In this document: positions 12,677 to 54,689 of the stretch, piece after piece
Position numbering within the stretch: position 1 is the first letter of the stretch
Layout: each line of letters begins with the position of its first letter
Assembly: GCA_017882325.1 (NCBI GenBank)
Contig: JADGPQ010000001.1
Location: forward strand, 541 to 64,540
Direction of reading: 5' to 3'
From: Thermoleophilia bacterium
Lineage (GTDB): Bacteria; Actinomycetota; Thermoleophilia; UBA2241
DNA: 64,000 bases
Notes under the pieces: generated by a model
The model's database searches: none
The model's input: the letters and a program-made list of their open reading frames with translations, nothing else
What the model was told of the DNA's origin: nothing
Made by a program: the position numbers and the translations under genes

Positions 12677-13288
12677 CTAACGTGTCCGGATGACTCGCGC
12701 CTCGGTGACCACGGAGCCCACCGCGAGGTCGTGCGGTTCGCAGGGGAGCTCGTCCACGAGCTGGGCCTCGAACGCAAGCGCCACCCACGGGATGCCCGGA
12801 CGCGTGCGCGGCAGATAGGAATCGTAGAAGCCGCCGCCGTAGCCGCAGCGCCCTCCAGCGGCGTCGAACGCCGCACCCGGTACGACGACCACGTCCATAC
12901 GCTCCGGAGGCACCTCCTCGAGACCCTCGCGCGGCTCTGGGACGCCCCAGGCGCTGGGCACCAGGTCAGCCGCCGGGTCGGCTATCCGATACGCGGCCAT
13001 GTGACGGGGTCTCAGCACGCGCGGCAAGCAGACGGTCTTGCCCTGCTCGAGGGCCCACGACACGAGGGGCTCCGTGTCGACCTCGCTGCGGAACGCGGCG
13101 AAGAGCATGACGGTGCCGGCCTTGTCCAGCTCGGGGAGAGCGGCGGCGCGGGCGCAGACGGCGACGCTGAGCAGGGCGCGTTCCGCGCCCGGCAGGGCGT
13201 CGCGCGCCGCGAGCGCGCGCCGCCGGAACTCCACCTTGGCGCGGGGAATCGCCGGCCGGGATCCCGCATCGCCGCGTCCGTCGGCCAT
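12677..13288 (-). CDS. 5-formyltetrahydrofolate cyclo-ligase
   Basis: MTHFS family motifs (GGRCGYGGGFYD); ends with TAG. Confidence 0.8.
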   Translation of the reverse strand: MADGRGDAGSRPAIPRAKVEFRRRALAARDALPGAERALLSVAVCARAAALPELDKAGTVMLFAAFRSEVDTEPLVSWALEQGKTVCLPRVLRPRHMAAYRIADPAADLVPSAWGVPEPREGLEEVPPERMDVVVVPGAAFDAAGGRCGYGGGFYDSYLPRTRPGIPWVALAFEAQLVDELPCEPHDLAVGSVVTEARVIRTR

Positions 13289-13473
13289 CGATTCGCCCTC
13301 CTCGCGTGAACTGTCTTGACAACGCTTCGGGGGAGGTAACGCAGAGTGCGACCCCCCAGAAGCCTCTCCTTCCTCTATAGTATAAGTGCGCAGACGCCCG
13401 GCGGGCTTCCGGGTCGCGCGCTGAGACGAGAGGGGACCGCTGGCCCAGGGGCCGCGCGGGCGGGAGGACAGGC

Positions 13474-14643
13474 ATGACGCTTCGTTCCCAGGAAGAGATG
13501 ACTCTGGCGACGGTGTTCGCGCGCACCCTCGGCAACGTGATCGCGCTCACGACGGCCGAGGAGAAGCGTGCCTGGCCGACCCCTGCGCAGGTGTTCGAAC
13601 ACACCCCGGACGGCGCCGCAGCACCCGTGGCCCTGCTTCGCCTGCTGCAATTCTCCGTCCTGCCCGAGATCCTCGGGGCCAGCGCCGGCCCCGCCATCTA
13701 CCTGGCGAGCAAACGGTTCAGCGGCGAGCTCGGCATCCACTCCATCCAGGGCCTCAAAGACTGGTTCCGGCACATGAGCCTCGGAGACCTTGAGGTGGAG
13801 CTCGACGAAGAGCGGGTGCTGGTCAAGCTGGGTCATTGCCTGAGCTGCCAGCGGCTGCCGGCCGGCGGCACCCCCGTCTGCGACTTCGAACGGGGCCTCG
13901 TCGACGGCGTGCTGGAGGGCATCACCGGCAGGGAGGTCGTCACCAAGGAGACGCTCTGCTGGGGCCTCGGTGACACGGTGTGCCAGTTCGAGGGCTACAA
14001 CGGCGAGCACGCGGGCTATCTCTATCGCGAGAACGGGTTCCACCCCGACGCGCAGCGACGCCTGCTGACGCAGCTCGCGGACCAGTCCGAAGTGGCGCTG
14101 GACAACCTGCGCCTCATCAGCGAACGCCGCGAGCACGAGACGCACGATCCTCTCACCGGGCTCGTGAACTTCCGCCAGCTCCGCGAGCGCGCGGCCTTTG
14201 AGCTGGCGCGCGCCGGGCGTCACGGCCACACGGTGGCGTTCGCCATGCTCGACCTCGACGATTTCCGCGCGGTCAATGAAGAGGCCGGGCGCGAGGGCGG
14301 AGACGAGGTCCTGTGCCACTGGGCCGCCGCCCTCACCGCGCAGCTGCGGAACTGCGACCTGGTGTGCCGCTATGGCGCCGACGAGTTCCTGCTGGTGCTG
14401 CCGGAGACAGCCGAACAGCAGGCCGACGCGGCTCTGGAGCGCGTGCTGGGCACGATGCAGCAGCTGGCCGTCGAGACCGGCGGCCGCACGTTCGCGCTCA
14501 CTGCTTCGGCCGGCGTCGCGAGCTTCCCCGGCGATGGCCGGACGGTCGAAGATCTGGTCGCCAAGGCCGCCACCACCATGTACACGGCCCGGGCCGCAGG
14601 CGCGGGCCGTGTCGCCTTCTACTCTCGCCCGCCCCGGCGCTGA
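13474..14643 (+). CDS. diguanylate cyclase with N-terminal V4R (4-vinyl reductase) sensor domain; GGDEF variant GADEF
   Basis: C-terminal GGDEF domain (RYGADEFLLVL, preceding LTGLVNFRQL); N-terminal Cys-containing V4R-like domain (CLSCQRL...CDFERGLVDG). Confidence 0.75.
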   Translation: MTLRSQEEMTLATVFARTLGNVIALTTAEEKRAWPTPAQVFEHTPDGAAAPVALLRLLQFSVLPEILGASAGPAIYLASKRFSGELGIHSIQGLKDWFRHMSLGDLEVELDEERVLVKLGHCLSCQRLPAGGTPVCDFERGLVDGVLEGITGREVVTKETLCWGLGDTVCQFEGYNGEHAGYLYRENGFHPDAQRRLLTQLADQSEVALDNLRLISERREHETHDPLTGLVNFRQLRERAAFELARAGRHGHTVAFAMLDLDDFRAVNEEAGREGGDEVLCHWAAALTAQLRNCDLVCRYGADEFLLVLPETAEQQADAALERVLGTMQQLAVETGGRTFALTASAGVASFPGDGRTVEDLVAKAATTMYTARAAGAGRVAFYSRPPRR

Positions 14644-14654
14644 GCGTCGCCACG

Positions 14655-15119
14655 GTGGCGGCACGCGTCGAGATCCTCGCCGTGGGGTCGCTGCACCGCG
14701 ACCTCGAGCCCGCGGCGCACCACTTCATGGACCTTCTGCGACCGCACGCCACGGTCTCCGTGCGCGAGGTCAAGGAGGTGTCGCTGCGCGGTCGCAGCGA
14801 AGCCGAAGTGCTGCGTGAAGAGGGCCGTCGCCTGCTCGCGGCATGGCCGCAGGCGCCTGTCGTCGGCGCGCTCGCCGTGGACGGGCGCGTTGTCGACACT
14901 CAGGCATTCGCCGCATGGCTGCAGAGGGCGTTCGAGCGCGGCGGCGCGGGCTTCGTGATCGGCGGCTCGCTGGGACTCGCCGGCGACGTGCAGGGACGCG
15001 CCGCGGAGCGGCTCTCCCTCTCGGCGCTCACCTTGCCGCACCAGCTGGCGAGGGTCGTCCTGCTGGAGCAGCTCTTCCGCGCCGGCAAGATCCTGCGCGG
15101 CGAGCCGTACCACCACTGA
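14655..15119 (+). CDS. rlmH: 23S rRNA (pseudouridine1915-N3)-methyltransferase RlmH
   Basis: SPOUT RlmH family sequence (VEILAVGSL...FVIGGSLGL); start codon uncertain. Confidence 0.7.
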   Translation: MAARVEILAVGSLHRDLEPAAHHFMDLLRPHATVSVREVKEVSLRGRSEAEVLREEGRRLLAAWPQAPVVGALAVDGRVVDTQAFAAWLQRAFERGGAGFVIGGSLGLAGDVQGRAAERLSLSALTLPHQLARVVLLEQLFRAGKILRGEPYHH

Positions 15120-15228
15120 GCCCGCGGGCGGGTGCCGGGCGGCAATCGCACCGCCCGGCCGGGGCCGCTAGAATGGGCTTCCGCGCCGGCGCCCCCGTCG
15201 GCGCGCCCACTACGACGGGCGGTGAGCC

Positions 15229-16974
15229 ATGACCGACGACCTCTACGATCTGGACGGCCTCGCGACTTCGCTGGCTGCGACGCTGCGAGAGCTGCTCACC
15301 GAGGCCGGCGTGGCCGACGCTGACGTGCCGGCCGTCGAGCTGGCGCTGCCCGCCCGCCCCGAACACGGCGACCTCACCACCAACGCCGCCATGGTGAGCG
15401 CCAAGCGTGCCGGCCGCCCGCCGCGCGAGCTGGCCCAGGCACTTGGCGAGCGCTGGCAGGCCGGCCCGGGAGCCGCGCTCTGCGAGCGCGCCTCAGTGGC
15501 CGGCCCGGGCTTCCTCAACCTGTTCCTCAACGCGGCCTGGTACCGCGGCGCCGTGCAGCGCATGCGCGCCGCGGGCACCGACTTCGGACGCGGCGCGCTG
15601 CCCCTCGGCGAGCGCCTCAAGATGAACGTCGAGTTCGTGAGCGTGAACCCCACGGGCCCGCTCCACGTCGGGCACGCGCGGTACGCTTCGTACGGCGACG
15701 CGCTCTGCCGCATCTTCACGTTCGTCGGTCACGACGTCACCCGCGAGTTCTACGTGAACGACTACGGCACGCAGATGCTGCGCTTCGGGCAGTCGCTCGC
15801 GGCGCGCTACGGCGAGCGGCTCGGCCTGGACACGCCGGTACCGGAAGAGGGCTACCAGGGGGAGTACCTTCTGGGCCTCGCGGATGACCTCATCGCGGCG
15901 GTGGGCGACCGCTACCGCGCAGCCGTTGCCGCGGCCGCCCCCGATGTGACCGCGCTCGCCACCGACGCGCTCGCGGCGATCAAAGAATGGGGCCGCGACG
16001 CCATCCTGGCCCAGTTCCGCCTCACGCTCGAGCGCCTGCGCGTGCCGTTCGACGTGTGGGCGCAGGAGAGCTCGCTGTACGCCGGCGAAGTCGAGCATCG
16101 GAGCTTCGCCGGCGAGGTCGGCAAGACGCTTGCCGATCTGGACGGCGAAGCCCTCCTCTACGACGAGGGCGGCGCCGTTTGGCTCAAGACCACGCGGTAC
16201 GGCGACGACAAGGACCGCGTGCTCATCCGCTCCAGCGGCGATCCCACCTACTTCCTCAGCGACATCGCCTACCATCGCGACAAGATGGACCGCGGGTTCG
16301 CGCACATGATCGACGTCTGGGGAGCCGATCACCACGGCTACGTGCCGCGCATGAAGGCCGCCTTCACGGCCCTGCCGCCACACGATCCCGACCGCCTCGA
16401 GCTCATCATCGGGCAGCTCGTGAATCTCCTGGAGAGCGGCGAAGCCAAGCGCATGAGCAAGCGCAAGGGCGACATCGTGACGGTCGACGACCTCCTTGAC
16501 GCCATCGGCGTGGACGCCGCGCGCTTCCTGCTCGTCGGGCGTTCGCACGACACGACGCTCGAGCTCGACATCGACCTCGCGTGCGAGCAGTCGAACAAGA
16601 ACCCCGTCTACTACGTGCAGTACGCGCACGCGCGCATCTGCAGCATCCTCCGCAACCTCGAGGGCGTAGGGGAGGGGTCGGCCGACGAAGCCCTGCCGGC
16701 CGTCGCCGTGGACGGCCACGAGAGGTCACTGGTGCGCGCGCTGGCCAGGTACGCCGACGTGCTGCTCGCGGCCGCCGATCAGCGCGCACCGCACCGCGTG
16801 CACACCTATCTCGGGGAGCTGGCGGCGGAGTTCCACGTGTTCTATCGCCACTGCCGGGTGCTGAGCGACGACCCCGATACCACCAGGTTCCGGGCCGCGC
16901 TCTGCGGGGCCACCAGAGACACGCTGGCGAGCGGGCTGGCGCTCCTCGGGGTGAGCGCGCCGGAGGCGATGTAA
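15229..16974 (+). CDS. argS: arginine--tRNA ligase
   Basis: class I aaRS HIGH-type motif (PTGPLHVGHAR) and KMSK motif (MSKRKG); 581 aa. Confidence 0.95.
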   Translation: MTDDLYDLDGLATSLAATLRELLTEAGVADADVPAVELALPARPEHGDLTTNAAMVSAKRAGRPPRELAQALGERWQAGPGAALCERASVAGPGFLNLFLNAAWYRGAVQRMRAAGTDFGRGALPLGERLKMNVEFVSVNPTGPLHVGHARYASYGDALCRIFTFVGHDVTREFYVNDYGTQMLRFGQSLAARYGERLGLDTPVPEEGYQGEYLLGLADDLIAAVGDRYRAAVAAAAPDVTALATDALAAIKEWGRDAILAQFRLTLERLRVPFDVWAQESSLYAGEVEHRSFAGEVGKTLADLDGEALLYDEGGAVWLKTTRYGDDKDRVLIRSSGDPTYFLSDIAYHRDKMDRGFAHMIDVWGADHHGYVPRMKAAFTALPPHDPDRLELIIGQLVNLLESGEAKRMSKRKGDIVTVDDLLDAIGVDAARFLLVGRSHDTTLELDIDLACEQSNKNPVYYVQYAHARICSILRNLEGVGEGSADEALPAVAVDGHERSLVRALARYADVLLAAADQRAPHRVHTYLGELAAEFHVFYRHCRVLSDDPDTTRFRAALCGATRDTLASGLALLGVSAPEAM

Positions 16975-16980
16975 GGGGCT

Positions 16981-17403
16981 CTACGCGCCGAAGCGCTCGC
17001 GCGCCCAGACGCGGAGCTCTTCGGTCTGCTCCGGCGTGAGTTCCTTGTCGAGCTTGAGCAGCTGCGATACCGCGACGTTGTACTGCCCTGTCAAGAGGCG
17101 GTCGACGACGCTCTCGAGGACGGTCTGGGCTACCTCGCGTCCGGGGATCGCCGGCGTGTACACGTAGGCGATGCGCGTCCTGTCCTGGACGAGGAGATGC
17201 TTCTTGACGAGGTTGTTCATCACCGTCATCACGGTGGTGTAGGCGATCTGCCGGCGCTCGCGCAGCGTCTCGTAGACTTGCCGGACTGTGGTCTGATCGT
17301 GTTGCCAGACCACTGCCAGGATGTCGGCCTCCAGGGAGCCGATGCCGGTGAAGGGCGCTCCTTTCGTGCTGCGTAGCCAACTGGGCCGGCCGGATTCTTC
17401 CAT
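16981..17403 (-). CDS. BlaI/MecI/CopY family transcriptional repressor (orphan, no BlaR1/CopZ partner adjacent)
   Basis: winged-helix penicillinase-repressor family sequence (ADILAVVWQHDQTTVRQVYETL...AYTTVMTVMNNLVKKHLL); ends with TAG; longer start at 17451 possible. Confidence 0.75.
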   Translation of the reverse strand: MEESGRPSWLRSTKGAPFTGIGSLEADILAVVWQHDQTTVRQVYETLRERRQIAYTTVMTVMNNLVKKHLLVQDRTRIAYVYTPAIPGREVAQTVLESVVDRLLTGQYNVAVSQLLKLDKELTPEQTEELRVWARERFGA

Positions 17404-17445
17404 CACGACCCCTTTCGCCAGATAATCTCGGGATGTGTCCGCACT

Positions 17446-17476
17446 CTGCATGCAGTACGTATGTAGTGCTACGTAT
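17446..17476. promoter_or_regulatory. dyad-symmetric operator candidate in divergent blaI-like / M42 peptidase promoter region
   Basis: perfect 10-bp palindrome CTGCATGCAG followed by TACGTA-N8-TACGTA inverted repeat; TACGTATGTA resembles CopY/BlaI TACAnnTGTA box. Confidence 0.35.
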
Positions 17477-17546
17477 TCCCGCTGTCTCCAAACTCACGCC
17501 CCGCATATTGTAGAATCGTGCCTCAGTGCCTGAAGGAGGTGTGCCC

Positions 17547-18614
17547 GTGTCCGCCGACGCCGCACTGTTGAAGTCGCTGTGCCTCGCCCCGGGCCCGACG
17601 GGGTTCGAGGCGCCGGCCCAAGAAGTTGTACGCCGGCGCCTGGCGCCCCTCGGAGAGGTCCAGGTCGACCCGCTGGGCAACGTCTGGCTCGACGTCGGTC
17701 CCGCCGGCGACCAGCAGGTCGTCGTGACCGCGCACGCCGACCAGATCGGCCTGATCGTCACCTATGTTGACGATCACGGCTACGCTTCCGTCGAGAAGAT
17801 CGGCGGCGTCGCGCCCCTGCTCGTCCCCGGCCGCCATTTCGTGATCCATGGCGCCGGCGGCCCGGTGCACGCGGTCGGCGGCAAAAAGCCCACGCACCTC
17901 ATCCCCGCCGACGAGCGCGACAAGGCGCCGGCTCTCGCCGAGCAGTTCCTCGACATCGGCGCCTCGAGCCGGGAGGCTGCGCTCGAGCGCGTCGCGGTCG
18001 GCGACCCCATCACGTTCACGCCCGAGTTCATCGAACTGTCGCCAGGCGTCTTCGGTACCCAGGCGCTTGACGACCGCGCCGGTGTGTACTGCCTTGTGCG
18101 CGCCCTCGAGCTCTACGCCGCCGAGCCGGGCGCGGCGCGGCTCAGCGGCGTCTCCACCGTGCACGAAGAGACCACGTTCATGGGCGCCAAGGCGCAGGCG
18201 AAGCGGCTTACGCCGGCCGTCATGATCGTCGTCGACGCCGATTTCTGCAGCGACACACCCGCCGCCGACGCCAAGAAGCTCGCCGGCGAGGTCAAGCTCG
18301 GCGCCGGCCCGGTGCTCGGCCGCGGCGCCGGCAGCAACCAACGCCTCCTGGCGATCGCTCGCGAAGTAGCGGCTGCGGAAGGCATCCCGGTGCAGCTCAA
18401 GGCCGCTCCCGAGGCGATGTCCACCGATGCCGACGAGCTCATGGCGGCCGGCGCCGCCGCGACGCTCTCGCTGAGCCTCCCGGTCCGCTACATGCACTCT
18501 CCGCTCGAGGTCGCGCACGGCGACGATCTGGAGGCCGCGGCGCATCTCATCGCCGCCCTCGCGCGGCGGGTGGGCCAGGACGGCGCGCCCGAATCCTTCG
18601 TCCCACGCATCTGA
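17547..18614 (+). CDS. M42 family metallopeptidase (FrvX/YsdC-like aminopeptidase)
   Basis: M42 family sequence; GAAGGAGG RBS 7 nt upstream of GTG 17547 (alt GTG 17526); TAGAAT -10-like box at 17511-17516. Confidence 0.8.
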   Translation: MSADAALLKSLCLAPGPTGFEAPAQEVVRRRLAPLGEVQVDPLGNVWLDVGPAGDQQVVVTAHADQIGLIVTYVDDHGYASVEKIGGVAPLLVPGRHFVIHGAGGPVHAVGGKKPTHLIPADERDKAPALAEQFLDIGASSREAALERVAVGDPITFTPEFIELSPGVFGTQALDDRAGVYCLVRALELYAAEPGAARLSGVSTVHEETTFMGAKAQAKRLTPAVMIVVDADFCSDTPAADAKKLAGEVKLGAGPVLGRGAGSNQRLLAIAREVAAAEGIPVQLKAAPEAMSTDADELMAAGAAATLSLSLPVRYMHSPLEVAHGDDLEAAAHLIAALARRVGQDGAPESFVPRI

Positions 18615-18645
18615 GGCGGCCCGCCGCCACGTCCCCGGAGGCTCC

Positions 18646-19461
18646 TTGAAGCTGTTCATCGCCATCGATCTGGAAGGCATCACGGGCGTGGTGTCCGAAC
18701 GTGACACGGACCGTGAAGGACCAGCCGCGAAGGCCGCCCGCGAGCACATGCGCGCCGATCTCGACGCGGTGCTCGAGGGCTGTGTCGCGGCGGGCGCCGA
18801 CGAGGTCGTCGTCTGTGACGCGCACGCGGACGGCCGCAACCTTGACGTTGCCGACCTGCCCCCGCGCGCCGTCCTCGTAGGCGGCTCCCCGACACCGTAC
18901 AGCATGCTTCAAGGCATCGCACGCGGCTACGACGGCGCACTGTTCGTGGGCTATCACGCGCGCGCCGGCACCGCCGCGGCCGTTCTCGAGCACACTTGGA
19001 ACTACAAGGTCTTCGCCGCCACGCTCGGTGATCTGGAGGTCGGCGAGTTCGGCCTCGGCGCCCTGCTGGCCGGGCACTTCGGCGTGCCCGCCGTCTATCT
19101 CTCCGGCGACGACAAGGCCGCCGCCGAGGCCGAGGCGCTGGTGCCGGGCATCGTCACCACCGTTGTCAAGACCGGGATCACGCGGCTCGCCGCCGTCTTG
19201 CTCTCGCCGGACGACGCCCGCGTACGCATTCGCGACGACGTCGAGCGCGCACTGCGCGCCGACGACAAGCCGGCCCCGCTCGCCTGGAACGGCAAGGCCC
19301 TGCGGCTGACCTTCACGCGTGTCGAGTTCTGCGACGTCGCCGAAGGCTGCCCGGGCGTGCGGCGCCTGGACGGGCGCACTCTGGAGATCCCCGGGGTGGA
19401 CTTCGAAGAGGTCTACCGCGGCTTCCTCGCCTGCGTGCGGTTGTCCGAGCTCAAGGATTGA
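18646..19461 (+). CDS. M55 family D-aminopeptidase (DppA-like)
   Basis: MKLFIAIDLEGITGV N-terminus characteristic of DppA/M55; TTG start with GGAGG RBS. Confidence 0.8.
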   Translation: MKLFIAIDLEGITGVVSERDTDREGPAAKAAREHMRADLDAVLEGCVAAGADEVVVCDAHADGRNLDVADLPPRAVLVGGSPTPYSMLQGIARGYDGALFVGYHARAGTAAAVLEHTWNYKVFAATLGDLEVGEFGLGALLAGHFGVPAVYLSGDDKAAAEAEALVPGIVTTVVKTGITRLAAVLLSPDDARVRIRDDVERALRADDKPAPLAWNGKALRLTFTRVEFCDVAEGCPGVRRLDGRTLEIPGVDFEEVYRGFLACVRLSELKD

Positions 19462-19509
19462 CCGGCGCAGTTGCGGGGGCGCGGCCGGTGTGGTGAACTA
19501 CTGCTGCGG

Positions 19510-19585
19510 GCGGATGTAGTGTAGTTGGCAACACGTCAGCTTCCCAAGCTGAAGATCGCGGGTTCGACTCCCGTCATCCGCTCCA
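19510..19585 (+). tRNA. tRNA-Gly (anticodon CCC), CCA encoded
   Basis: manual cloverleaf: 7-bp acceptor GCGGATG/CATCCGC, D stem GTGT/ACAC, anticodon stem TCAGC/GCTGA with loop TTCCCAA, T arm GCGGG-TTCGACT-CCCGT, discriminator T, CCA. Confidence 0.85.
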
Positions 19586-19612
19586 AGTGTTTCCGGGGAT
19601 TCTGTGGGAATC

Positions 19613-19637
19613 GCGGCCCGCTCTTCGGGGCCGTTTT
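19613..19637 (+). terminator. rho-independent terminator-like hairpin plus TTTT after tRNA-Gly
   Basis: GGCCCG-loop-CGGGGCC stem followed by TTTTCGTT. Confidence 0.5.
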
Positions 19638-19653
19638 CGTTCGATGCGACCCT

Positions 19654-20184
19654 CTAACGGGCGCTGTGGCGCTCCATCAGGCCCAAGCCTCGCAGGCGCG
19701 TCTGCATGGCCTTGCGGCTGACCTCGAAGCGATCTGCGAGGCGAGCGACATCGAGGCCCTGCTCGCGCACCGCGTCGCGCACCAGATGTTCGGGCATGAG
19801 CAGCTCGGCGGCGAACGTGTCGGCCTCGCGCTCCTCCATGCGCCCCGCCTCGTTGACGCCGCCGCCGCGCTCGGGACGGCAGCGCTCCGGGTGCAGCACG
19901 AAGTGGCCGATCTCGTGGGCGATCGTGAAGCGTCGGCGGCCAGAGTCGCCGGAGCCGTTGAGCACGATGGCGCGCCCGTCACCCAGGGGCTCCAGGGCGG
20001 CTTCGCTGGTAAAGGGCTCGCGAGTCTTGCTGACCAGCTCGAGATTGAGCGCGCTGACGACATCGCGCAGCGACACCGGCTCGTGCGAGATGCCGGCCGC
20101 ATCGAGCAGGCGCGTAGCCTGATTGCGGATGTCTGACGCGGGATGGTTCACGAGGTTGGCCCCCTCCGGCCCGCATTCTACCAC
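19654..20184 (-). CDS. ImmA/IrrE family zinc metallo-endopeptidase (DUF955), peptidase domain only
   Basis: HExxH motif IAHEIGHFVLH and downstream EREADTFAAELLMP signature; ends TAG; no adjacent XRE partner. Confidence 0.75.
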   Translation of the reverse strand: MVECGPEGANLVNHPASDIRNQATRLLDAAGISHEPVSLRDVVSALNLELVSKTREPFTSEAALEPLGDGRAIVLNGSGDSGRRRFTIAHEIGHFVLHPERCRPERGGGVNEAGRMEEREADTFAAELLMPEHLVRDAVREQGLDVARLADRFEVSRKAMQTRLRGLGLMERHSAR

Positions 20185-25181: not shown

Positions 25182-26435
25182 ATGCACGAGGTCAACGTCG
25201 GCCACAAGGCCCTGGCCGACTACCGCTCCATCGTCCCCAGGGAGCTCATGGCCGAGATCGACGAGCTGTCCGCGGAGCTCCGCGGGAAGCGCGTGCTGCA
25301 CGTGAACGCCACCGCCTTCGGCGGCGGCGTGGCCGAGATCCTCTACGCCCTGGTGCCGCTCATCTCCGACGCCGGACTGCCGGCCGAGTGGCAGGTGATC
25401 ACGGCGCCGCCCGAGTTCTACAACGTGACGAAGAGCTTCCACAATGGCCTGCAGGGCCATGCTGTGGACTTCCCGGCCGAGGCGCGGGAGCTCTACGAAA
25501 GCGTCTGCCGCGCCAACGCCGCCGATCTCACGCGCGCCTACGACTTCGTCATGGTCCACGATCCGCAGCCGTTGGCCATGCGCGACTACGTCACCATGAG
25601 CCAGGACCGGTCGACCCGGTGGATCTGGCGCTGCCACATCGACACGTCCACGCCGGACCAGGGGCTGTACGACTACCTGCTCCCGTCGATCAACGGCTAC
25701 GACGCGGCCGTTTACACCCTGCGTGACTACGTGCCGCAGGGCCTCACCGTGCCGGTGCGCGAGATCGCCCCGACCATCGACCCTCTGGCGCCCAAGAACA
25801 TGAAGCTCTCCGCCGAGGATGCCACCTACATCGTGCGCCAGTTCGGCATCGACGTGGAACGCCCGCTTCTCCTGCAGGTCTCGCGCTTCGACCCCTGGAA
25901 GGACCCGCTGGGCGTCGTCGACGTCTACCGCGCCGTCAAGGCGAACTACCCGGCGATGCAGCTCGCTCTCGTGGGGTCGATGGCGAGCGACGATCCGGAG
26001 GGCTGGGAGTACCTGGAGAAGGTGATCGAATATGTGGCCGCCGACCCCGACGTGTTCCTTCTGTCCAATCTCGACAACGTGGGCTCGGTGGAGATCAACG
26101 CCTTCCAGAGCCACGCCGACGTGATCGTGCAGAAGTCAACGCGCGAGGGCTTCGGCCTCACCGTCACCGAGGGGTTGTGGAAGGCGCGGCCGACCATCGG
26201 CGGCGACGTCGGGGGGATCCCGCTGCAGATCGAGGACGGCGTCACCGGGTATCTCGTCAAGTCCGCGGCCCAGTGTGCTGAGCGGTGCCTCCAGGTCCTG
26301 GCGAAGCCCGAGAAGCACCGGCGCATGGCTCTGCTGGGCAAGGAGCACGTGCGCCGCGAGTTCCTCACGCCGCGGCTGCTGCGCGACGACCTCAGGCTCT
26401 TCTCGGACCTTCAGGCGGGTAAGATAGGGCGGTAG
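25182..26435 (+). CDS. treT: trehalose synthase TreT (trehalose glycosyltransferring synthase, GT4)
   Basis: strong similarity to archaeal/Rubrobacter TreT: HVNATAFGGGVAEILYALVPL, WRCHIDTS, VSRFDPWKDP, DDPEGW, REGFGLTVTEGLWK; GGAGG RBS. Confidence 0.85.
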   Translation: MHEVNVGHKALADYRSIVPRELMAEIDELSAELRGKRVLHVNATAFGGGVAEILYALVPLISDAGLPAEWQVITAPPEFYNVTKSFHNGLQGHAVDFPAEARELYESVCRANAADLTRAYDFVMVHDPQPLAMRDYVTMSQDRSTRWIWRCHIDTSTPDQGLYDYLLPSINGYDAAVYTLRDYVPQGLTVPVREIAPTIDPLAPKNMKLSAEDATYIVRQFGIDVERPLLLQVSRFDPWKDPLGVVDVYRAVKANYPAMQLALVGSMASDDPEGWEYLEKVIEYVAADPDVFLLSNLDNVGSVEINAFQSHADVIVQKSTREGFGLTVTEGLWKARPTIGGDVGGIPLQIEDGVTGYLVKSAAQCAERCLQVLAKPEKHRRMALLGKEHVRREFLTPRLLRDDLRLFSDLQAGKIGR

Positions 26436-32492: not shown

Positions 32493-34211
32493 TTGACATC
32501 GTCTGCGAAGCCCGTTCGCAAATCCCCGGTGCCGAGCGATATCGAGATCGCCCAGGCCGCCACCATGCAGCCCATCCAGGCGATCGCCAAGAATGCGGGC
32601 ATCCTGGAGGACGAGCTCGAGCTGTACGGTCGCTACAAGGCCAAGATCGACTACATGGCCCTGCTCGAGCGCCTCAAGGACAAGCCCGACGGCAAGATCA
32701 TCAACGTCACCGCCATCACCCCGACGCCGCTGGGCGAGGGCAAGACCGTTACCGCCATCGGGCTTACCGAGTCGATGAACGCCATCGGCATCGATACGAT
32801 GCTCGCCCTGCGCGAGCCGTCGCTCGGCCCGGTCTTCGGCATCAAGGGCGGCGCTGCCGGCGGCGGGTACTCGCAGGTCGTCCCGATGGAGGACATCAAC
32901 CTCCACTTCACCGGCGACATCCATGCAGTCGGCGTAGCCAACAACCTGCTCGCCGCCATGGTCGACACCCATCTCATGCACGGCAATGCTCTCGCGATCG
33001 ACCCTCTGAGCATCTCCTGGCGCCGCGTCGTCGATCTCAACGATCGCGCCATGCGCGAGATCGTCAACGGCCTGGGCGGCACGCTCAACGGGATCCCGCG
33101 CCAAACGGGCTATGACATCACAGTCGCCAGCGAGGTCATGGCTATCCTCGGCCTCGCCACCTCACTGAAGGACCTGCGCGAGCGCCTCGGTCGCATCACC
33201 TTCGGCTACAGTACTGCGGGAAAGCCGCTGACCGCCGACGACATCGGTGCCGGCGGCGCCATGGCGGTGCTGCTCAAGGACGCCATCAAGCCCAACCTCG
33301 TGCAGACGCTCGAGGGCAATGCCTGCCTCGTCCACGCCGGTCCGTTCGCCAATATCGCCCAGGGCAACAACTCGATCATCGCCGACAAGGTCGCCATGAA
33401 GCTGGCCGACTACGTCGTCACCGAGTCGGGCTTCGGCGCCGATCTGGGCTCCGAGAAGTTCATGGACATCATCTGCCGCTACGGCGGGTTCGAGCCGAGC
33501 TGTGTGGTCATCACCTGCACCATGCGGGCCCTGAAGATGCACGGCGGCCTGCCGGTCGACCCCGAGCTGCTCAAGGCCGAGAACAACGCCGCCCTCGAAA
33601 AGGGCTGCGAGAACCTCGCCAAGCAGGTCGAGAACATGAAGCTTTTCGGCATCCCCGTGGTGGTCACGATCAACCGCTTCGCCTTCGACCGCGACAGCGA
33701 GGTCGAGATCGTGCGCAGGGAGGCCATCGCGGCCGGCGCCGAAGACGCCGTGCCGATCGACGTCCACGCCCTGGGCGGCGACGGCGCCCAGGAGGCCGCC
33801 GAGATCGTCAAGGCGGCCGCCGACAAGGGCGGCGACTTCAAGTTCCTCTACTCGCTCGACGCCTCCATCAAGGAGAAGATAGAGACCATCGCCACCAAGG
33901 TCTACGGCGCCGACGGCGTGGACTACCTGCCGGATGCCGAGGCCAAGATCAAGCAGTTCACCGAGCAGGGCCTGGACAAGCTGCCGCTGTGCATGGCCAA
34001 GACGCACCTCTCGCTCAGTCACGACCCTGCGCTCAAGGGCCGGCCGCGCGGCTTCCGCGTGCCGATCCGCGACATCAGGCCGGCCACCGGCGCCGGGTAC
34101 TTGTACCCGCTGCTCGGCGAGATGCGCACGATGCCGGGCCTGGCCAAGCGGCCGGCCGCCGTCGACGTCGACATCGACGTCGAGACCGGCCGCATCATCG
34201 GCCTGTTCTAG
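32493..34211 (+). CDS. fhs: formate--tetrahydrofolate ligase
   Basis: SDIEIAQ N-terminus and PTPLGEGKTVTAIGL P-loop; AAGGAGG RBS 5 nt before TTG 32493 (alt GTG 32472); ends TAG. Confidence 0.9.
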   Translation: MTSSAKPVRKSPVPSDIEIAQAATMQPIQAIAKNAGILEDELELYGRYKAKIDYMALLERLKDKPDGKIINVTAITPTPLGEGKTVTAIGLTESMNAIGIDTMLALREPSLGPVFGIKGGAAGGGYSQVVPMEDINLHFTGDIHAVGVANNLLAAMVDTHLMHGNALAIDPLSISWRRVVDLNDRAMREIVNGLGGTLNGIPRQTGYDITVASEVMAILGLATSLKDLRERLGRITFGYSTAGKPLTADDIGAGGAMAVLLKDAIKPNLVQTLEGNACLVHAGPFANIAQGNNSIIADKVAMKLADYVVTESGFGADLGSEKFMDIICRYGGFEPSCVVITCTMRALKMHGGLPVDPELLKAENNAALEKGCENLAKQVENMKLFGIPVVVTINRFAFDRDSEVEIVRREAIAAGAEDAVPIDVHALGGDGAQEAAEIVKAAADKGGDFKFLYSLDASIKEKIETIATKVYGADGVDYLPDAEAKIKQFTEQGLDKLPLCMAKTHLSLSHDPALKGRPRGFRVPIRDIRPATGAGYLYPLLGEMRTMPGLAKRPAAVDVDIDVETGRIIGLF

Positions 34212-34339: not shown

Positions 34340-34981
34340 TTGAGCGACGCTCCCACCATGTATTGCATCGAACCGCTGCAGGTCTACCTTGACGACGCTG
34401 CCGCCAACAAGCCGGCGCCCGGCGGCGGCAGCGTGTCCGCCTGCGCCGGCGCTCTCGGCGCCGCCCTTGTCTCGATGGTCTGCAATCTCACCCGCGGGCG
34501 CGAGAAGTTCGCCGGCGTCGAGGCCCAGATGATCACGCTGGTCGCGGCGTCCGAGGCCGCGCGCGGTCGCCTCGAGCAACTCCTACAGGAAGACACCACC
34601 GCCTACAACGGCGTCATCGCCGCCTACAAGATGCCCAAGGAGACGGCCGAGGAGCAGGCGGCGCGCAGCCAGGCCATCCAGGATGGCCTGATCATCGCCG
34701 CCGACGTGCCGCTCGAGATCTGCGGCGTCGCGGTGGAGGTGTGCCGCCTCTCCAAGGTCGCGGCCGGCCTCGGCAATCCGCAGGCGGTCACCGACGCCGG
34801 CATCGGCGCTATCCTCGGCGAGGCCGCCGTGGTGGGCGCCGCGCTCAACGTCAGGATCAACCTCGGCTCCATCAAGGATCAGGCGTACGTGCAGTCGGCC
34901 GCCGCCCGGATCGACGAGATCCAGGCCGAGGCCGCGGCGCTGCGCGCAGAGGTCCTGGCCATCACGCTCTCCAAGCTCTAG
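34340..34981 (+). CDS. cyclodeaminase/cyclohydrolase family protein (FtcD C-terminal domain-like; methenyl-THF cyclohydrolase candidate)
   Basis: helical FTCD_C-like sequence; GGAGG RBS 6 nt before TTG 34340 (alt ATG 34358); ends TAG. Confidence 0.65.
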   Translation: MSDAPTMYCIEPLQVYLDDAAANKPAPGGGSVSACAGALGAALVSMVCNLTRGREKFAGVEAQMITLVAASEAARGRLEQLLQEDTTAYNGVIAAYKMPKETAEEQAARSQAIQDGLIIAADVPLEICGVAVEVCRLSKVAAGLGNPQAVTDAGIGAILGEAAVVGAALNVRINLGSIKDQAYVQSAAARIDEIQAEAAALRAEVLAITLSKL

Positions 34982-35013: not shown

Positions 35014-35871
35014 ATGGCAGCTCAGATCATCGACGGCAAGGCGATCGCCGCACAGGTACGCGAAGAGATCAAGGCCGAGGTCGCCGCGCTCGCGACGTGC
35101 GGAGTGAAGCCCGGCGTCGCCACCATCCTGGTGGGCGACGACGGCGGCGCGCAGTTCTACCGCGGCCAGATCGAGAAGAACACCGGCACGGTCGGCTTCA
35201 ACTACTACAACAGCACCTTGCCCGACGGCACCAGCGAAGAAGAAGTCCTCGCCCTCATCGACAAGCTCAACAACGACGCCCACGTGCACGGCATCCTGGC
35301 GCTGATGCCTATGGCCGGTGGCATCGACCAGAACAAGGTCTTCAACGCCATCTCGCCGGTCAAGGACCTCGACTGCGTCAACCCGGCCAACATCGGCCAC
35401 GTACTGCTCGGCGACCAGCTGTTCGCGCCGGCGACGCCCTCGGCCTGCATGGAGATCCTCGACCGTGAGGGCGTGGAGCTGCAGGGCCTCGACGTCACTA
35501 TCGTCAACCACTCCAACATCGTCGGAAAGCCAGTCGCGCTGCTGTGCCTCAACCGCAATGCCTCGGTCCACGTCGTGCACGTGTTCAGCAAGGACGTGCC
35601 CGCCGCCTGCCGCGAGGCCGACGTCCTCATCAGCGCAGCGCCGGTGCGCAACCTCATCAAGAGGGACATGGTGAAGCCGGGCGCCGTGGTGATCGACGTC
35701 ACCACCATGCGTGGTGACGATGGCAAGCAGGTCGGCAGCCTGGAGTGGGAAGGCGTCCTCGAGGTCGCCGGCAGCGCCACGCCGGTGCCCGGCGGCGTGG
35801 GCCCCGTGACCAACGTGATGCTGCTGAAGAACGCGCTTGCGGCCTGCAAGGCGCAGAGCGCGTGCGCCTAG
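35014..35871 (+). CDS. folD: bifunctional methylene-THF dehydrogenase / methenyl-THF cyclohydrolase
   Basis: MAAQIIDGKAIA...ATILVGDDG... FolD hallmark N-terminus and NAD(P) domain; ends TAG. Confidence 0.9.
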   Translation: MAAQIIDGKAIAAQVREEIKAEVAALATCGVKPGVATILVGDDGGAQFYRGQIEKNTGTVGFNYYNSTLPDGTSEEEVLALIDKLNNDAHVHGILALMPMAGGIDQNKVFNAISPVKDLDCVNPANIGHVLLGDQLFAPATPSACMEILDREGVELQGLDVTIVNHSNIVGKPVALLCLNRNASVHVVHVFSKDVPAACREADVLISAAPVRNLIKRDMVKPGAVVIDVTTMRGDDGKQVGSLEWEGVLEVAGSATPVPGGVGPVTNVMLLKNALAACKAQSACA

Positions 35872-49918: not shown

Positions 49919-50089
49919 GCCTTCTTGCCTGCCCTCGCTGGCCTGTGGGACAATGAACGTGTCTTGGAGCCGCGCGCTGCCGCCCAGCATCGCGAGTCGC
50001 CTTTCTCTCACACCGCAGGCTCATCCCACGGTAGCGCCGTCCTCGGGGCCGGGGCGCGTGGCGGTACCCGCGTCGACAGGTAGGTGCGC

Positions 50090-51331
50090 ATGACCAGCGA
50101 CCTCTCGAGTTTCGTCATCGCCAGGGCCCGGCCGGCCGAGCCGGCGGTGCGCATCGACGACACGACGCTGCGCGACGGGGAGCAGACGGCCGGCGTCGTC
50201 TTCTCCAACCACGAGAAGATCCGCATCGCCAAGCTTCTCGACGAGGTCGGCGTCCACCAGATCGAGGTGGGCATCCCCGCCATGGGCGGCGACGAGAAGG
50301 CGACGATCAGGGAGATCGTCGACCTCGGGCTCGACGCCTCCATCCTCGCCTGGAACCGGGCCGTCATCGAGGACGTCAGGCACTCGCTCGACTGCGGAGT
50401 CGACGCCGTGGCCATCTCGATGTCGGCCAGCGACATCCACATCGAGCACAAGCTGGCCAAGTCGCGGCAGTGGGTCCTCGACCAGATTCGCGAGTGCGTG
50501 GCCTTCGCCAAGGATAAGAACCTCTACGTCTCGGTCAACGCCGAGGACGCCTCACGCGCCGATCTCGAGTTTCTGCTGCGCTTCAGCCAGGCCGCCAAGG
50601 AGGAGGGCGCCGACCGCCTGCGTTTCTGCGACACGCTCGGCATCCTCGACCCGTTCGATACCTTCAACGTCATCACGTTCCTCAAGAAACAGGGCGGGCT
50701 CGACATCGAGATGCACACCCACGACGACTTCGGCATGGCGACGGCCAACGCGCTCGCCGGCATCAAGGCCGGAGCCACCTACGTCAACACCACCGTCAAC
50801 GGTCTCGGGGAGCGCGCCGGCAACGCCGCCCTCGAGGAGGTCGTCATGGCGCTCAAGTACCTCGGCAAGGTGGATGTGGGCCTGCACACGAGCCGCTTCC
50901 GCGAGCTCAGCGAATACGTGGCCGCCGCCTCGGCGCGCACCATCCCGGCCTGGAAGAGTATCGTCGGCACCAACGTCTTCGCCCACGAAAGCGGCATCCA
51001 CGCCGACGGGGTCATCAAGAACCCGCTCAACTACGAAGCGTTCGCCCCCGAGGACGTCGGCCTCGAACGCCAGATCGTGGTGGGCAAGCACTCCGGGTCG
51101 CGCACCATCTACCGCAAGTTCCAGGAGTTCGGCCTGGAGCTCACGCAGGCCGACTGCGACGGCGTCCTCGCCCTGGTGCGCAAGACGGCCGTGGAGCTCA
51201 AGCGAGCCCTCTTCGACAAGGAGCTCATGTACATCTATCAGGACTATCTGGCGCGCCTCGGCGACGCCGTGCCCATGGGCAAGCGGGCGGACGGCGCAGC
51301 CGCGGCCGAGACCGCCGGAGCGTCTTCGTGA
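50090..51331 (+). CDS. homocitrate synthase / (R)-citramalate synthase / 2-isopropylmalate synthase family enzyme, short form (no LeuA regulatory domain)
   Basis: HMGL-like TIM barrel (IDDTTLRDGEQ...HTHDDFGMATANALAGIKAGATYV), about 413 aa. Confidence 0.75.
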   Translation: MTSDLSSFVIARARPAEPAVRIDDTTLRDGEQTAGVVFSNHEKIRIAKLLDEVGVHQIEVGIPAMGGDEKATIREIVDLGLDASILAWNRAVIEDVRHSLDCGVDAVAISMSASDIHIEHKLAKSRQWVLDQIRECVAFAKDKNLYVSVNAEDASRADLEFLLRFSQAAKEEGADRLRFCDTLGILDPFDTFNVITFLKKQGGLDIEMHTHDDFGMATANALAGIKAGATYVNTTVNGLGERAGNAALEEVVMALKYLGKVDVGLHTSRFRELSEYVAAASARTIPAWKSIVGTNVFAHESGIHADGVIKNPLNYEAFAPEDVGLERQIVVGKHSGSRTIYRKFQEFGLELTQADCDGVLALVRKTAVELKRALFDKELMYIYQDYLARLGDAVPMGKRADGAAAAETAGASS

Positions 51332-52584
51332 CCGCGCTCACCCTCGCCGAGAAGATCCTCGCGGCGCGCGCCGGCCTCGGCACGGTCGTGCCCGGGCAGA
51401 TCGTCGTGGCCGCCGTCGACGTGGCCATCGCCCAGGACGGCACGGGGCCGCTCGCCATCGAGCAGCTCGAGGCGCTCGGCGCCGCCACCGTCAAGGCGCC
51501 GACCTGCGTGTTCTTCATCGACCACGCCGCCCCGGCGCCGCGCAGCGAGCTGGCCAATGCGCAGAAGACGATCAGGGCGTTCTGCGCGTCCTCCGGCGCC
51601 ACGCTCAGCGACGTCGAGATGGGCGTCTGCCACCAGAGGGTCGCCGAGAGCTACGCACGGCCCGGCGACCTGGTCATCGGCGCCGACTCGCACACCTGCA
51701 TGGCGGGCGCCCTCGGAGCATTTGCGACGGGCATGGGCAGCACCGACGTCGCCGTCGGCATGGCCAGCGGCCAGACCTGGCTGCGCGTGCCCGAGACGTT
51801 TCGTATCGAGGTCGCCGGCGTGCTGCGCGACGGCGTCGAAGCCAAGGATCTGATGCTCACGCTGATCGGCGCCATTGGCGCCGACGGCGCCACGTACAAG
51901 GCGCTCGAGTTCGGCGGGACGGGCATCGACGTTCTGCCAATGCCCGGCCGCTTCACGCTCAGCAACATGGCGGTGGAGGCCGGCGCGAAGGCGGGCCTCA
52001 TGCCCAGCGACGACACGACGCGCGAGTTCCTCATCGGTCAGGGCCGCGAGGAGGTCTGGCGGCCGCTCGCCGCCGACCCCGGCGCCGCCTACGAGAGCGT
52101 CGTCGAGTCCGACGCCCGTGCCATCGTCCCGATGGTGGCCCGTCCGCACACGGTAGACAACACGGCGCCGGTCGCGGAGCTCAAGGGCACCAGGGTCGAC
52201 CAGGTGCTCATCGGCACGTGCACCAACGGGCGGCTTGCCGACCTGCGCTCGGCGGCGCGCCTGCTGCGCGGGCGCCGCCGAGCCTCCCACACGCGTCTCA
52301 TCGTCACGCCGGCCTCTCAGGCCGTGGCGCGAGCCGCGGCTGCGGAGGGCCTGTTCGACGTGTTCTGGGATGCCGGAGCCGTGGTCACCAACCCCGGCTG
52401 CGGCGCCTGCGTCGGCATCCACGAGGGCATCCTCGCCGACGGCGAGGTCTGCCTCAGCACCGCCAATCGCAACTTCCACGGGCGCATGGGCAACCCCGAG
52501 GCGTCCATCTATTTGGCCTCGCCGGCCACCGCGGCCGCCACGGCCGTGGCCGGCGAGATCACCGATCCCCGTGAACTGCTCTAG
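51328..52584 (+). CDS. 3-isopropylmalate dehydratase / homoaconitase large subunit (archaeal-type aconitase family)
   Basis: aconitase family Cys ligands ([26 protein letters not shown]); GTGA overlap upstream; ends TAG. Confidence 0.8.
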
Positions 52585-52597
52585 GAAGGAGGACGCC

Positions 52598-53119
52598 GTG
52601 GCCAAGCAATACGACGCGCCGCCGCCGTTGGTCATCGACCCCGCCAAGCGCTTCACCGCCACCATCAGCACCGACCAGGGCGACATCGTCATCGAGCTCT
52701 ACGCGGACAAGGCGCTCGCGACGGTCAACAACTTCGTGTTCCTGGCTCGCGAGGGCTTTTACGACGGCGTCACGTTTCATCGCGTCATCAAGGGGTTCAT
52801 GGCGCAGGGCGGCGACCCAACCGGCAGTGGCAGCGGCGGCCCCGGCTACCGCTTCGCCGACGAGTTCCACCCGGCGCTCAAGCACGACCAGCCCGGCATC
52901 CTGTCGATGGCCAACGCCGGCCCGAACACGAACGGGTCGCAGTTCTTCATCACGTACCGCGACGCGCCCCATCTCGACGGCAAACACGCCGTGTTCGGGC
53001 GCGTCATCGAAGGCATGGACGTCCTCGAGGCCATCCCCGAGCGAGACCCTACGCGCGCGCGTGAGCCCGGCCTCGCGATGAACAGCATCACGGTCCATGA
53101 GGAGGAATGGATCACGTGA
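52598..53119 (+). CDS. cyclophilin-type peptidyl-prolyl cis-trans isomerase
   Basis: [31 protein letters not shown] cyclophilin motifs; GGAAGGAGG RBS before GTG. Confidence 0.85.
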
Positions 53120-53631
53120 GCGAGGAGCTGCTACGCGGCAAGGCTTGGCTTTTCGGCGACGACATCTCCACCGACCACATCGCCCCGGGCCGCCTGTTCC
53201 ACCTACGCACCGACCTCCCCGAGCTGGCCAAGCACGTCCTCGAGGACGCACGTCCGGAGTTTGCCGCGTCTCTGGCGCCCGGCGACTTCGTCGTGGGCAG
53301 GCGCAACTTCGGCCTCGGATCCAGCCGGGAGCACGCGCCGCGTATCATCAAGCTCGCCGGCGCGGGTGCGGTGATTGCTCAGAGCTTCGCTCGTATCTTC
53401 TTCCGCAACGCCATCAACGTCGGCTTGCCCGTGCTGCAGTGCGACACGAGCGGCATCGGCGAGCAGGACGACCTCGAGGTCGTCTTGATCGCCGGCGAGG
53501 TGCGCGATCTCACGAGCGGAGCCGTCATCCCGTTCGTGCCCCTGCCGCCGGTGATGGTGACGATCTTGAACGACGGCGGCCTGGTGGCGCACGTCAAGAA
53601 GCACGGCGGCTTTGCATTGCCTCAGGGCTGA
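53107..53631 (+). CDS. 3-isopropylmalate dehydratase / homoaconitase small subunit (short archaeal type)
   Basis: aconitase swivel domain ([11 protein letters not shown]...[12 protein letters not shown]). Confidence 0.8.
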
Positions 53632-53684
53632 CCGGCCCCGCGAGGCGCCATCAGCCCGTTGAGATCCGAGACCACAGGAGCTAC

Positions 53685-54689
53685 ATGACCTTTACAGTCA
53701 CCCTGATCCCGGGCGACGGCACCGGCCCCGAGCTCGCCGCCGCCCTCGAGACCGTGATCGCCGCGACCGGCGTACCGATCCTGTGGGAAGTGCACGACGC
53801 CGGCGTGGATGTGATGAAGGAGTATGGCACGCCGCTGCCCGAGCACGTCCTCGACTCCATCCGTCGCACCAGAGTGGCGATCAAGGGACCCATCACGACA
53901 CCGGTCGGCCACGGATTTCGGAGTGTGAACGTGGCCCTGCGCAAAGAGCTCGATCTCTACGCCTGCCTGCGCCCCTCCAAGTCGATGAAGGGCGTGCGCA
54001 GCCGCTTTGAGGATATCGACCTCGTCGTCGTCCGCGAGAACACGGAAGACCTCTACGCAGGCATCGAGCACATGGTCGGCGAGGACGCGGCGGAGAGCAT
54101 CAAGATCATCACCCGCAAAGGCAGCGAACGTATCGTGCGGTTTGCCTTCGAGTACGCGCGCCGGCGCGGCCGCCGCAAGGTCACCGCCGTGCACAAGGCC
54201 AACATCATGAAGTGCACCGACGGGCTCTTTCTGCGCGTCGCCGGCGAAGTGGCCGCGCGGTACCCGGACATCGAGTTCGAGGATCGCATCGTCGACAACA
54301 TGTGCATGCAGCTCGTCCAGAAGCCGGAGCTCTACGACGTGCTGGTGCTGCCCAATCTGTACGGCGACATCGTCAGCGACCTGTGCGCCGGTCTCATCGG
54401 CGGCCTCGGCGTGGCGCCGGGCGCCAACTTCGGCGACGACATCGCCGTGTTCGAGCCCGTGCACGGCAGCGCCCCCAAGTACGCCGGCCGGGACAAGGTC
54501 AACCCCATGGCGCTGCTGCGCTCGGGCGTTCTGCTGCTCGAGCATCTCGGCGAGGACGCCGCGGCGCGCCGCATGGAGGACGCCATCGCGGCCGTCGTCG
54601 CCGAGGGCAAGGACGTGACCTACGACCTGGGCGGCACGGCCGGCACCAGCAGCATGGCCGCCGCCATCGCACGCCGCATCCAAAGTTAG
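53685..54689 (+). CDS. homoisocitrate/isocitrate/3-isopropylmalate dehydrogenase family (Thermus HICDH-like NAD enzyme)
   Basis: [52 protein letters not shown]; ends TAG. Confidence 0.8.

Follow-up and report, generated by a model that had tools for sequence, protein, structure and literature searches.

We analysed a 64-kb stretch of DNA from a Thermoleophilia bacterium (contig JADGPQ010000001.1; 68% GC; hereafter the window), in which genes ending in TAG lie near the gene of a tRNA that decodes UAG as pyrrolysine (Pyl). The TAG codons that end genes in this and related Pyl-encoding Thermoleophilia are probably ordinary stops. UAG would then be ambiguous in these cells, at a cost kept low by a limited supply of Pyl-tRNAPyl. 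The lineage shows no codon-level accommodation to a UAG-decoding tRNA, since TAG has its baseline share of stops, stop codons turn over freely between orthologues, backup stops are not in excess after TAG, and in relatives some of the pyl and methyltransferase genes themselves end in TAG. How cells tolerate a stop codon that doubles as a sense codon is unresolved for pyrrolysine (PMC12626013). Bacteria with Pyl are already known to keep TAG at about 20% of their stops. The observation from which we started, that TAG is a common stop next to a UAG-decoding tRNA, holds true but describes the usual state of such bacteria. The new elements are the host clade, the dispersed layout of its pyl genes, and the natural mRNAs that require both meanings of UAG.

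TAG as a stop codon in the window and its relatives

Genes were called in the window with a codon-usage caller trained on its 17 longest canonical open reading frames. The 63 called genes end in TGA (48), TAG (11) or TAA (4). The resulting TAG share of 17% shows no excess over the approximately 20% found in bacteria irrespective of their GC content (PMC3549826; binomial p=0.75), and is well above the median of about 5% (range 1-27%) in Pyl-encoding archaea (PMC12626013; p=2.7e-4). The original prediction, made from the letters of the window, had called TAG a frequently used stop. This holds as a count, but the share is no higher than in bacteria at large; what deserves notice is the lack of any depletion of TAG beside the Pyl machinery. 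The genes ending in TAG are the following.

12677..13234, minus strand: MTHFS (5-formyl-tetrahydrofolate cyclo-ligase), TAG at 12677-12679; PF01812, profile 3-186 of 186
16981..17406, minus strand: BlaI/penicillinase-repressor-like gene, TAG at 16981-16983; PF03965
19654..20184, minus strand: ImmA/IrrE (Peptidase_M78), TAG at 19654-19656; gene call and Pfam
25182..26435, plus strand: TreT-like glycosyltransferase, TAG at 26433-26435; PF21269 and PF00534; absent from the original prediction
32529..34211, plus strand: fhs (formate-tetrahydrofolate ligase), TAG at 34209-34211; PF01268
34358..34981, plus strand: cyclodeaminase (FTCD_C), TAG at 34979-34981; gene call and Pfam
35014..35871, plus strand: folD, TAG at 35869-35871; gene call and Pfam
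51328..52584, plus strand: LeuC-like aconitase-family large subunit, TAG at 52582-52584; gene call and Pfam
53685..54689, plus strand: isocitrate/isopropylmalate dehydrogenase-like (IDH-like) gene, TAG at 54687-54689; gene call and Pfam
54731..55021, plus strand: DUF3467 gene, TAG at 55019-55021; gene call and Pfam; absent from the original prediction
62039..62489, plus strand: frameshifted DUF6328 gene, whose C-terminal piece (62295-62489) ends in TAG

Eight of these genes had been named beforehand, and all eight end in TAG at the positions given for them. The Pfam match of each stops no more than 0-5 positions short of the C-terminal end of the profile, and does so at the TAG or shortly ahead of it (for fhs, the PF01268 alignment covers profile positions 2-556 of 556 and residues 3-560 of 560), so the TAGs are the natural ends of these proteins. 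With the tails of the orthologues unconserved as well (see below), re-annotation leaves the named TAGs in place as true stops. The length of protein that read-through would add varies widely: the next non-TAG stop in frame lies 40 codons beyond the TAG in MTHFS, and read-through would add 84 codons to the BlaI-like gene, 41 to the cyclodeaminase and 20 to folD. In fhs, as had been noted, the next in-frame stop is only 6 codons on, where the TAG is followed by five sense codons and then TGA (tail O-NLTCG). Within the window, a ribosome passing the end of a TAG gene would meet the next non-TAG stop after a median of 40 codons, vs 52 for the other genes. The ImmA-like gene was considered as a read-through candidate and rejected, because the coding signal after its TAG is the antisense shadow of a plus-strand gene at 18646-19461. 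The DUF6328 gene adjoins pylT downstream; its ATG (62039) and its Pfam-matching C-terminal part (62295-62489) are in different frames, and the frameshift, near 62215-62245, is either a pseudogene mutation or an assembly error.

The window belongs to a Thermoleophilia clade (Actinomycetota) in which some 40 species-level metagenome-assembled genomes (MAGs) have the same pyl layout. A search of the GTDB species representatives with PylB gave 80 loci, and the best 40 or so of them (64-86% identity, 63-76% GC) are nearly all in MAGs that carry the label Thermoleophilia or Actinomycetota; a single long-read survey of soils and sediments supplied many of these. Only two Actinobacteria were counted among 81 PylRS-bearing bacteria in a 2022 survey (PMC9630628; PylRS, pyrrolysyl-tRNA synthetase), and a full-text literature search on pyrrolysine plus Thermoleophilia returned nothing relevant. 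This is thus a large and barely described Pyl-encoding clade of high-GC Actinomycetota from soils and sediments.

Across the window and 42 clade loci, TAG accounts for 165 of 846 stops (19.5%), with no difference from 20%. The stops of orthologous genes vary: AOR ends in TGA 12 times, TAG 19 times and TAA 7 times, DUF3467 in 18 TGA, 12 TAG and 2 TAA, and the IDH-like gene in 27 TGA, 5 TAG and 1 TAA. The exception to this turnover is the leuC-like gene, whose TAG is kept in 29 of 31 orthologues, at the point where this gene meets the following one (PPIase) with its GGAGG motif. TAG also ends genes of the pyl region among the relatives, namely PylSc (14 of 22), PylD (7 of 37), PylSn (2 of 31) and the corrinoid protein (7 of 25). 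The tails that follow TAG are unconserved among orthologues, and since this includes the pyl genes, those TAGs are stops and not Pyl codons.

Fail-safe tandem stops are not in excess after TAG in the window or in the clade, where a stop occurs within 5 codons in 4% of the TAG-ended genes vs 11% of the TGA-ended ones, and where the median distance to the next TGA or TAA is 76.5 codons after TAG vs 59.5 after TGA. The base that follows ordinary TAG stops in the clade has no strong bias (A 27%, C 37%, G 30%, T 6%). We also scanned the window and the 42 loci for genes in which coding signal continues on both sides of an in-frame TAG; this gave no Pyl gene, only neighbours lying in the same frame such as AOR-ferredoxin and leuC-PPIase. 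AOR and ferredoxin share a frame across the TAG in L008, L011, L012, L014, L015, L016, L024, L029, L031 and L086, where read-through would fuse both proteins; the AOR of the window (55344-57122) ends in TGA.

The Pyl machinery and its client genes

The features of the Pyl machinery in the window are listed below. The identities of pylB, pylC, pylD and pylSn rest on NCBIfam equivalogs, all above their curated cut-offs.

57959-57986: hairpin before the bluB-like-pylBCD unit
58002-58010, plus strand: putative extended -10 element TGGTACCAT, 7 nucleotides ahead of the BluB-like ATG
58018..58680, plus strand: nitroreductase/BluB-like gene, directly upstream of pylB
58708..59787, plus strand: pylB (methylornithine synthase), TGA stop; TIGR03910, 442.5 bits (cut-off 348.2)
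59784..61028, plus strand: pylC, TGA stop; TIGR03909, 337 bits (cut-off 248.3)
61049..61831, plus strand: pylD, TGA stop; TIGR03911, 182.8 bits (cut-off 150.05)
61874..61879, plus strand: -10-like hexamer TAGAAT, 10 nucleotides upstream of the 5' end of tRNA-Pyl
61890..61962, plus strand: pylT, tRNA-Pyl with anticodon CUA, called by ARAGORN
63546-63554, plus strand: putative extended -10 element TGCTACACT, 10 nucleotides ahead of the pylSn ATG
63565..63891, plus strand: pylSn (tRNA-binding small subunit of PylRS), TGA stop; TIGR03912, 125.8 bits (cut-off 51.15)

The original prediction had spoken of both pylT and PylRS. The UAG-decoding tRNA is borne out by the ARAGORN call, by its cloverleaf fold (minimum free energy -36.7 kcal/mol, with a 5-nucleotide D-loop, a long anticodon stem and a variable region of 2-3 nucleotides) and by covariation across the clade: in 12 distinct pylT sequences 99.3% of the cells are paired, six pairs have compensatory double changes and the anticodon is invariant. 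The general Rfam tRNA model did not detect the tRNA-Pyl of the window. The synthetase was overstated, as only the pylSn subunit is present and a tblastn search of the window with the Methanosarcina mazei catalytic domain found no catalytic pylSc. At least 22 relatives have PylSc on the strand opposite to pylSn and 2-3.5 kb farther on, and the same spot here falls beyond position 64000.

The clade shares one gene order. Upstream come a homocitrate-synthase-like gene, leuC-like, PPIase, leuD-like, IDH-like, DUF3467, AOR, ferredoxin and a ThiS-like gene; the pyl part consists of the nitroreductase/BluB-like gene, pylB, pylC, pylD, pylT, gmad2 (minus strand) and pylSn; and the distal part consists of a radical-SAM gene (minus), a corrinoid protein gene (plus), pylSc (minus), an amidase gene (minus) and bacA (minus). 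This order (loci L001-L041 and L077; 57959-63891 in the window) is undescribed. All pyl components are retained in the approximately 40 species-level MAGs. Median pairwise ratios of non-synonymous to synonymous substitution rates (dN/dS) among the window and six relatives, computed for pylB, pylC, pylD, pylSn and pylSc, range from 0.11 (pylSn) to 0.26 (pylC). Purifying selection acts on pylT as well as on the pyl genes. The nitroreductase-family gene at 58018-58680 has weak similarity to BluB (TIGR02476, 54.6 bits against a cut-off of 150). About 40 loci keep it as the gene directly before pylB; pyl clusters are not known to include such a gene. The PylC of the window has 414 residues and is matched by TIGR03909 in two stretches, the best covering profile positions 3-207 of 374, which suggests an insertion relative to known PylC.

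The pyl genes of the clade appear to be divided among at least five transcription units, whose putative promoters are of the -10-only or extended -10 kind and whose transcripts would in some cases be leaderless. We read these promoters from the comparative conservation of -10 elements; a sigma-70 consensus scan of 57.6-64 kb gave no -35/-10 pair. One of the hexamers TACAAT, TAGAAT, TATGAT or TATCAT precedes pylT closely in almost every one of the 40 or so clade loci, in most of them at the same distance of about 10 nucleotides, and the sequence farther upstream is variable. The bluB-like-pylBCD transcript looks leaderless, because its extended -10 is only 7 nucleotides from the BluB-like ATG, and a leaderless transcript is predicted for pylSn too. 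In relatives the start of pylSc, which is translationally coupled to the cell-wall amidase gene, overlaps the stop codon of that gene (GTGA), so pylSc probably rides on the bacA-amidase transcript. About 25 clade loci also have a strongly conserved region of about 80 nucleotides ahead of the corrinoid-protein gene (L002 16540-16645, beyond the part of the locus that the window covers), which contains …gcacccgccatacctagttgcgcgg…gtcgggaggagtcca. Rfam gave no match to it and no known riboswitch before the gene; the region may act as a leader RNA or as an operator.

The genes that would use Pyl are not next to this machinery. Queries of MttB, MtbB and MtmB from Firmicutes and Deltaproteobacteria (tblastn) had no match in the window or in the Thermoleophilia loci, and the 10 kb around pylB are free of methylamine methyltransferase genes in all 42 clade loci, whereas mtmB, mttB or mtbB flank the pyl genes in loci of Firmicutes and Deltaproteobacteria. 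Protein searches with deltaproteobacterial MttB and actinobacterial MtmB gave no clade match either. The high-GC MttB matches were rejected as clients, because W or L stands where Pyl would be and marks them as non-Pyl paralogues, and one MtmB match that looked high-GC (P0145) was rejected because it comes from an archaeon-like contig of 56% GC. The similarity of the clade corrinoid protein to the neighbours MtbC, MttC or MtmC did not discriminate the substrate.

The search that worked used a degenerate, GC-biased DNA pattern made of TAG and the conserved motif that follows the Pyl site. It retrieved 27 metagenome contigs of 60-74% GC with a Pyl-type MttB homologue, 48-61% identical to deltaproteobacterial Pyl-MttB and aligned straight across an in-frame TAG at the Pyl position. 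One of them, L086, carries the Pyl-type mttB together with an AOR-ferredoxin unit that is 75-77% identical in nucleotides over 2.3 kb to all clade loci, and the ferredoxin of this unit shares 91% identity with the one in a Thermoleophilia MAG; another, L111, has the radical-SAM neighbour of the clade at 68% identity. In a Thermoleophilia bacterium (GCA_054307125.1, L114), mttB has the TAG and then the conserved ADSKLGDAQVGHEKT. Two more mttB contigs, of 1.24 Mb and 0.51 Mb and 69-70% GC, have the order TetR, binding protein, mtbB(Pyl), mttB(Pyl), corrinoid protein, and TetR-family regulators adjoin the mttB/mtbB operons in related contigs. Judged by these predicted genes, the class Thermoleophilia does have Pyl-dependent trimethylamine and dimethylamine methyltransferases. 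A search with the N-terminal fragment of the L086 MttB returned more than 120 clusters of fragments of exactly 327 residues, from genes cut at the TAG; the mttB of GCA_054307125.1 and those of the 1.24-Mb and 0.51-Mb contigs are among them. Standard annotation splits mttB and mtbB at TAG and hides methylamine metabolism in a common soil class.

Several of these client genes also end in TAG. Five of the 14 high-GC mtbB(Pyl) genes have both the internal Pyl-TAG and a terminal TAG, with the next stop 8-54 codons on:

L086: mtbB with both TAGs
L088: mtbB with both TAGs
L110: mtbB with both TAGs
L111, 2450-3844, plus strand: mtbB with both TAGs
L113, 17923-19140, minus strand: mtbB with both TAGs

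Around mtbB and mttB, ordinary stops are TAG in 6 of 18 cases in L112 and 8 of 16 in L113, and over the 27 contigs in 26 of 111, read-through candidates set aside. The mRNAs with both meanings of UAG are concrete test objects for metaproteomics and heterologous expression. In high-GC genomes, MttB-family paralogues that are not of the Pyl type and have L or W in place of Pyl share operons with Pyl-type mttB (L112 12137-13591; L113 7608-9077 and 13240-14709; also P0103, P0106 and P0107), and some of them end in TAG.

How the two readings of UAG may coexist

If TAG is an ordinary stop in an ambiguous code, as we think probable, Pyl would be inserted at the single internal UAG of mttB/mtbB-type genes located elsewhere in these genomes, and release factor 1 (RF1) would usually win at normal gene ends. 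A limited, demand-tuned supply of Pyl-tRNAPyl would most likely keep the cost low. Three components with transcription of their own would have to come together for this supply, namely pylT, the split synthetase (pylSn + pylSc) and the bluB-like-pylBCD unit. Residual C-terminal extensions would be tolerated.

Some points weigh against this account. The lineage is uncultured and known here from sequence alone, and we saw no regulator and no operator-like shared motif in the pyl region. For this genome, the window covers neither pylSc nor any Pyl-dependent gene, and it does not include the RF1 gene. The 846 clade stops come from orthologous neighbourhoods of the pyl cluster; they are not independent and not genome-wide. 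Most of the high-GC mttB contigs are tied to Thermoleophilia only indirectly. Finally, the gene caller was a simple one of our own, so that start sites are approximate, with the stops unaffected.

The original prediction took the TAG stops to argue for conditional expression of the Pyl machinery, or else to raise the question of how suppression is insulated from normal termination, and this was the right way to frame the problem. In the strict form of conditional expression, the machinery would be fully off except on methylamines, and normal stops would be insulated in time. There is a bacterial precedent, Acetohalobium arabaticum, in which UAG is read as Pyl only on trimethylamine and about 20% of stops are TAG (Prat 2012, via PMC8211752, PMC8318568). 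The TetR regulators beside the mttB/mtbB operons and the separate pylBCD transcription unit behind its hairpin fit such control, and nothing contradicts conditional expression as such. The insulation would however be incomplete, as genes needed at the same time also end in TAG. These are PylSc in 14 of 22 relatives, mtbB(Pyl) in 5 of 14, their operon neighbours, and fhs, cyclodeaminase and folD of the window, a run of three C1-tetrahydrofolate genes that would each be needed while methylamine-derived methyl groups are processed (we infer their co-expression from the pathway). With TAG ending PylSc, mtbB(Pyl) and the operon neighbours, timing alone cannot protect normal stops. The conserved -10 of pylT, which has no visible operator, and the overlap of pylSc with the amidase stop in relatives also speak against a machinery that is fully off. 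We regard strict insulation in time as unlikely, whereas some degree of conditional expression agrees well with the published model.

It is about as doubtful that UAG is read as Pyl and as stop at once, within the same operons and mRNAs, with an insulation that would be kinetic or context-based through a discriminator still unknown. This possibility is suggested by the mtbB genes with both UAGs, by PylSc ending in UAG, by the scattered machinery, by the constitutive-looking pylT promoter and by the position of pylSc on a cell-wall operon. Another reading holds that the two meanings are told apart by local context, either adjacent nucleotides or a structure in the mRNA comparable to PYLIS or SECIS, and that ordinary stops are protected in cis. 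The internal Pyl-UAG and terminal stop-UAG within single mtbB mRNAs could hint at such a signal, and a PYLIS-like element has been reported to improve suppression in archaeal mtmB (PMC12626013). Yet no essential cis element for Pyl is known in any organism (PMC12626013, PMC8211752), and the base after ordinary TAGs is not strongly skewed, although no structure search was made. We consider protection in cis quite improbable.

It is more improbable still that the Pyl system is a non-functional relic that leaves TAG usage simply unaffected. The presence of pyl genes alone is no proof of function, an archaeal system having failed in vivo (PMC12626013), and neither pylSc nor a Pyl-dependent gene is in the window. 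But dN/dS is low (0.11-0.26 for pylB, C, D, Sn and Sc), pylT has compensatory changes and a conserved -10 before it, and these together make a relic unlikely; all components are also kept in about 40 species-level MAGs, and Pyl-type mttB/mtbB genes have conserved sequence after their TAG. The idea that some of the listed TAGs are Pyl codons or programmed read-through sites yielding functional longer proteins, for which the AOR-TAG-ferredoxin and leuC-TAG-PPIase pairs in the same frame in several relatives could speak, can be practically dismissed, as domain models end at the TAG, tails and the frame relation of neighbours are unconserved (leuC and PPIase are in different frames in the window) and orthologues carry TGA or TAA at the same position.

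Known Pyl systems and neighbouring features

The closest known systems are those of the A. arabaticum/Desulfitobacterium type (Firmicutes, Deltaproteobacteria). As in these, the clade has a split PylRS (pylSn + pylSc), pylBCD and a compact bacterial tRNA-Pyl(CUA), TAG is kept as a common stop (about 20%), and Pyl is predicted in mttB/mtbB-type methyltransferases. In contrast with them, the hosts here are Thermoleophilia (Actinomycetota) of about 68-70% GC, and the order is bluB-like-pylB-pylC-pylD-pylT...pylSn...rSAM/corrinoid...pylSc (rSAM, radical-SAM), not the pylTScBCDSn described for bacteria (PMC3941956). The clade cluster is also interrupted, lies on both strands and has no linked methyltransferase gene.

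In the archaeon Methanosarcina acetivorans, UAG is both stop and Pyl codon, and pyl expression has been proposed to be tuned to demand (PNAS 2025, PMC12626013). The case of the Thermoleophilia would be similar in that UAG has both meanings in one cell, with no dedicated cis element or elongation factor known. It differs in that the minimisation of TAG is not seen (17-20% of stops here, against the archaeal median of about 5%), and in that the archaeal pylTSBCD forms one cluster with a fused PylRS, whereas the genes are split and dispersed here. The archaeal case rests on experiments, ours on sequence only.

The marine Deltaproteobacteria of Kivenson et al. 2021 (PMC8318568) are likewise uncultured and known from MAGs, with a Pyl-type trimethylamine methyltransferase near a transcriptional regulator, and standard gene callers likewise split their methyltransferase genes at TAG; the code expansion there involves both Pyl and selenocysteine. 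They belong to another phylum, differ in GC, and their pyl genes adjoin methyltransferase genes (L043, L046, L049), unlike those of the Thermoleophilia.

Two regions of the window lie apart from these systems. Between 273 and 12101 are encoded a short-chain dehydrogenase, two 3-hydroxyacyl-CoA dehydrogenases, a BKACE beta-keto-acid cleavage enzyme, a cyclase, a cupin, two IclR regulators and a branched-chain-type ABC transporter; this block looks like a carnitine- or lysine-derived catabolic cluster. The other region (19510-20184) has a tRNA-Gly(CCC) at 19510-19585 directly beside the ImmA/IrrE-like gene, and such pairings of a tRNA with an ImmA/IrrE-like gene are often found at the edges of integrated elements.

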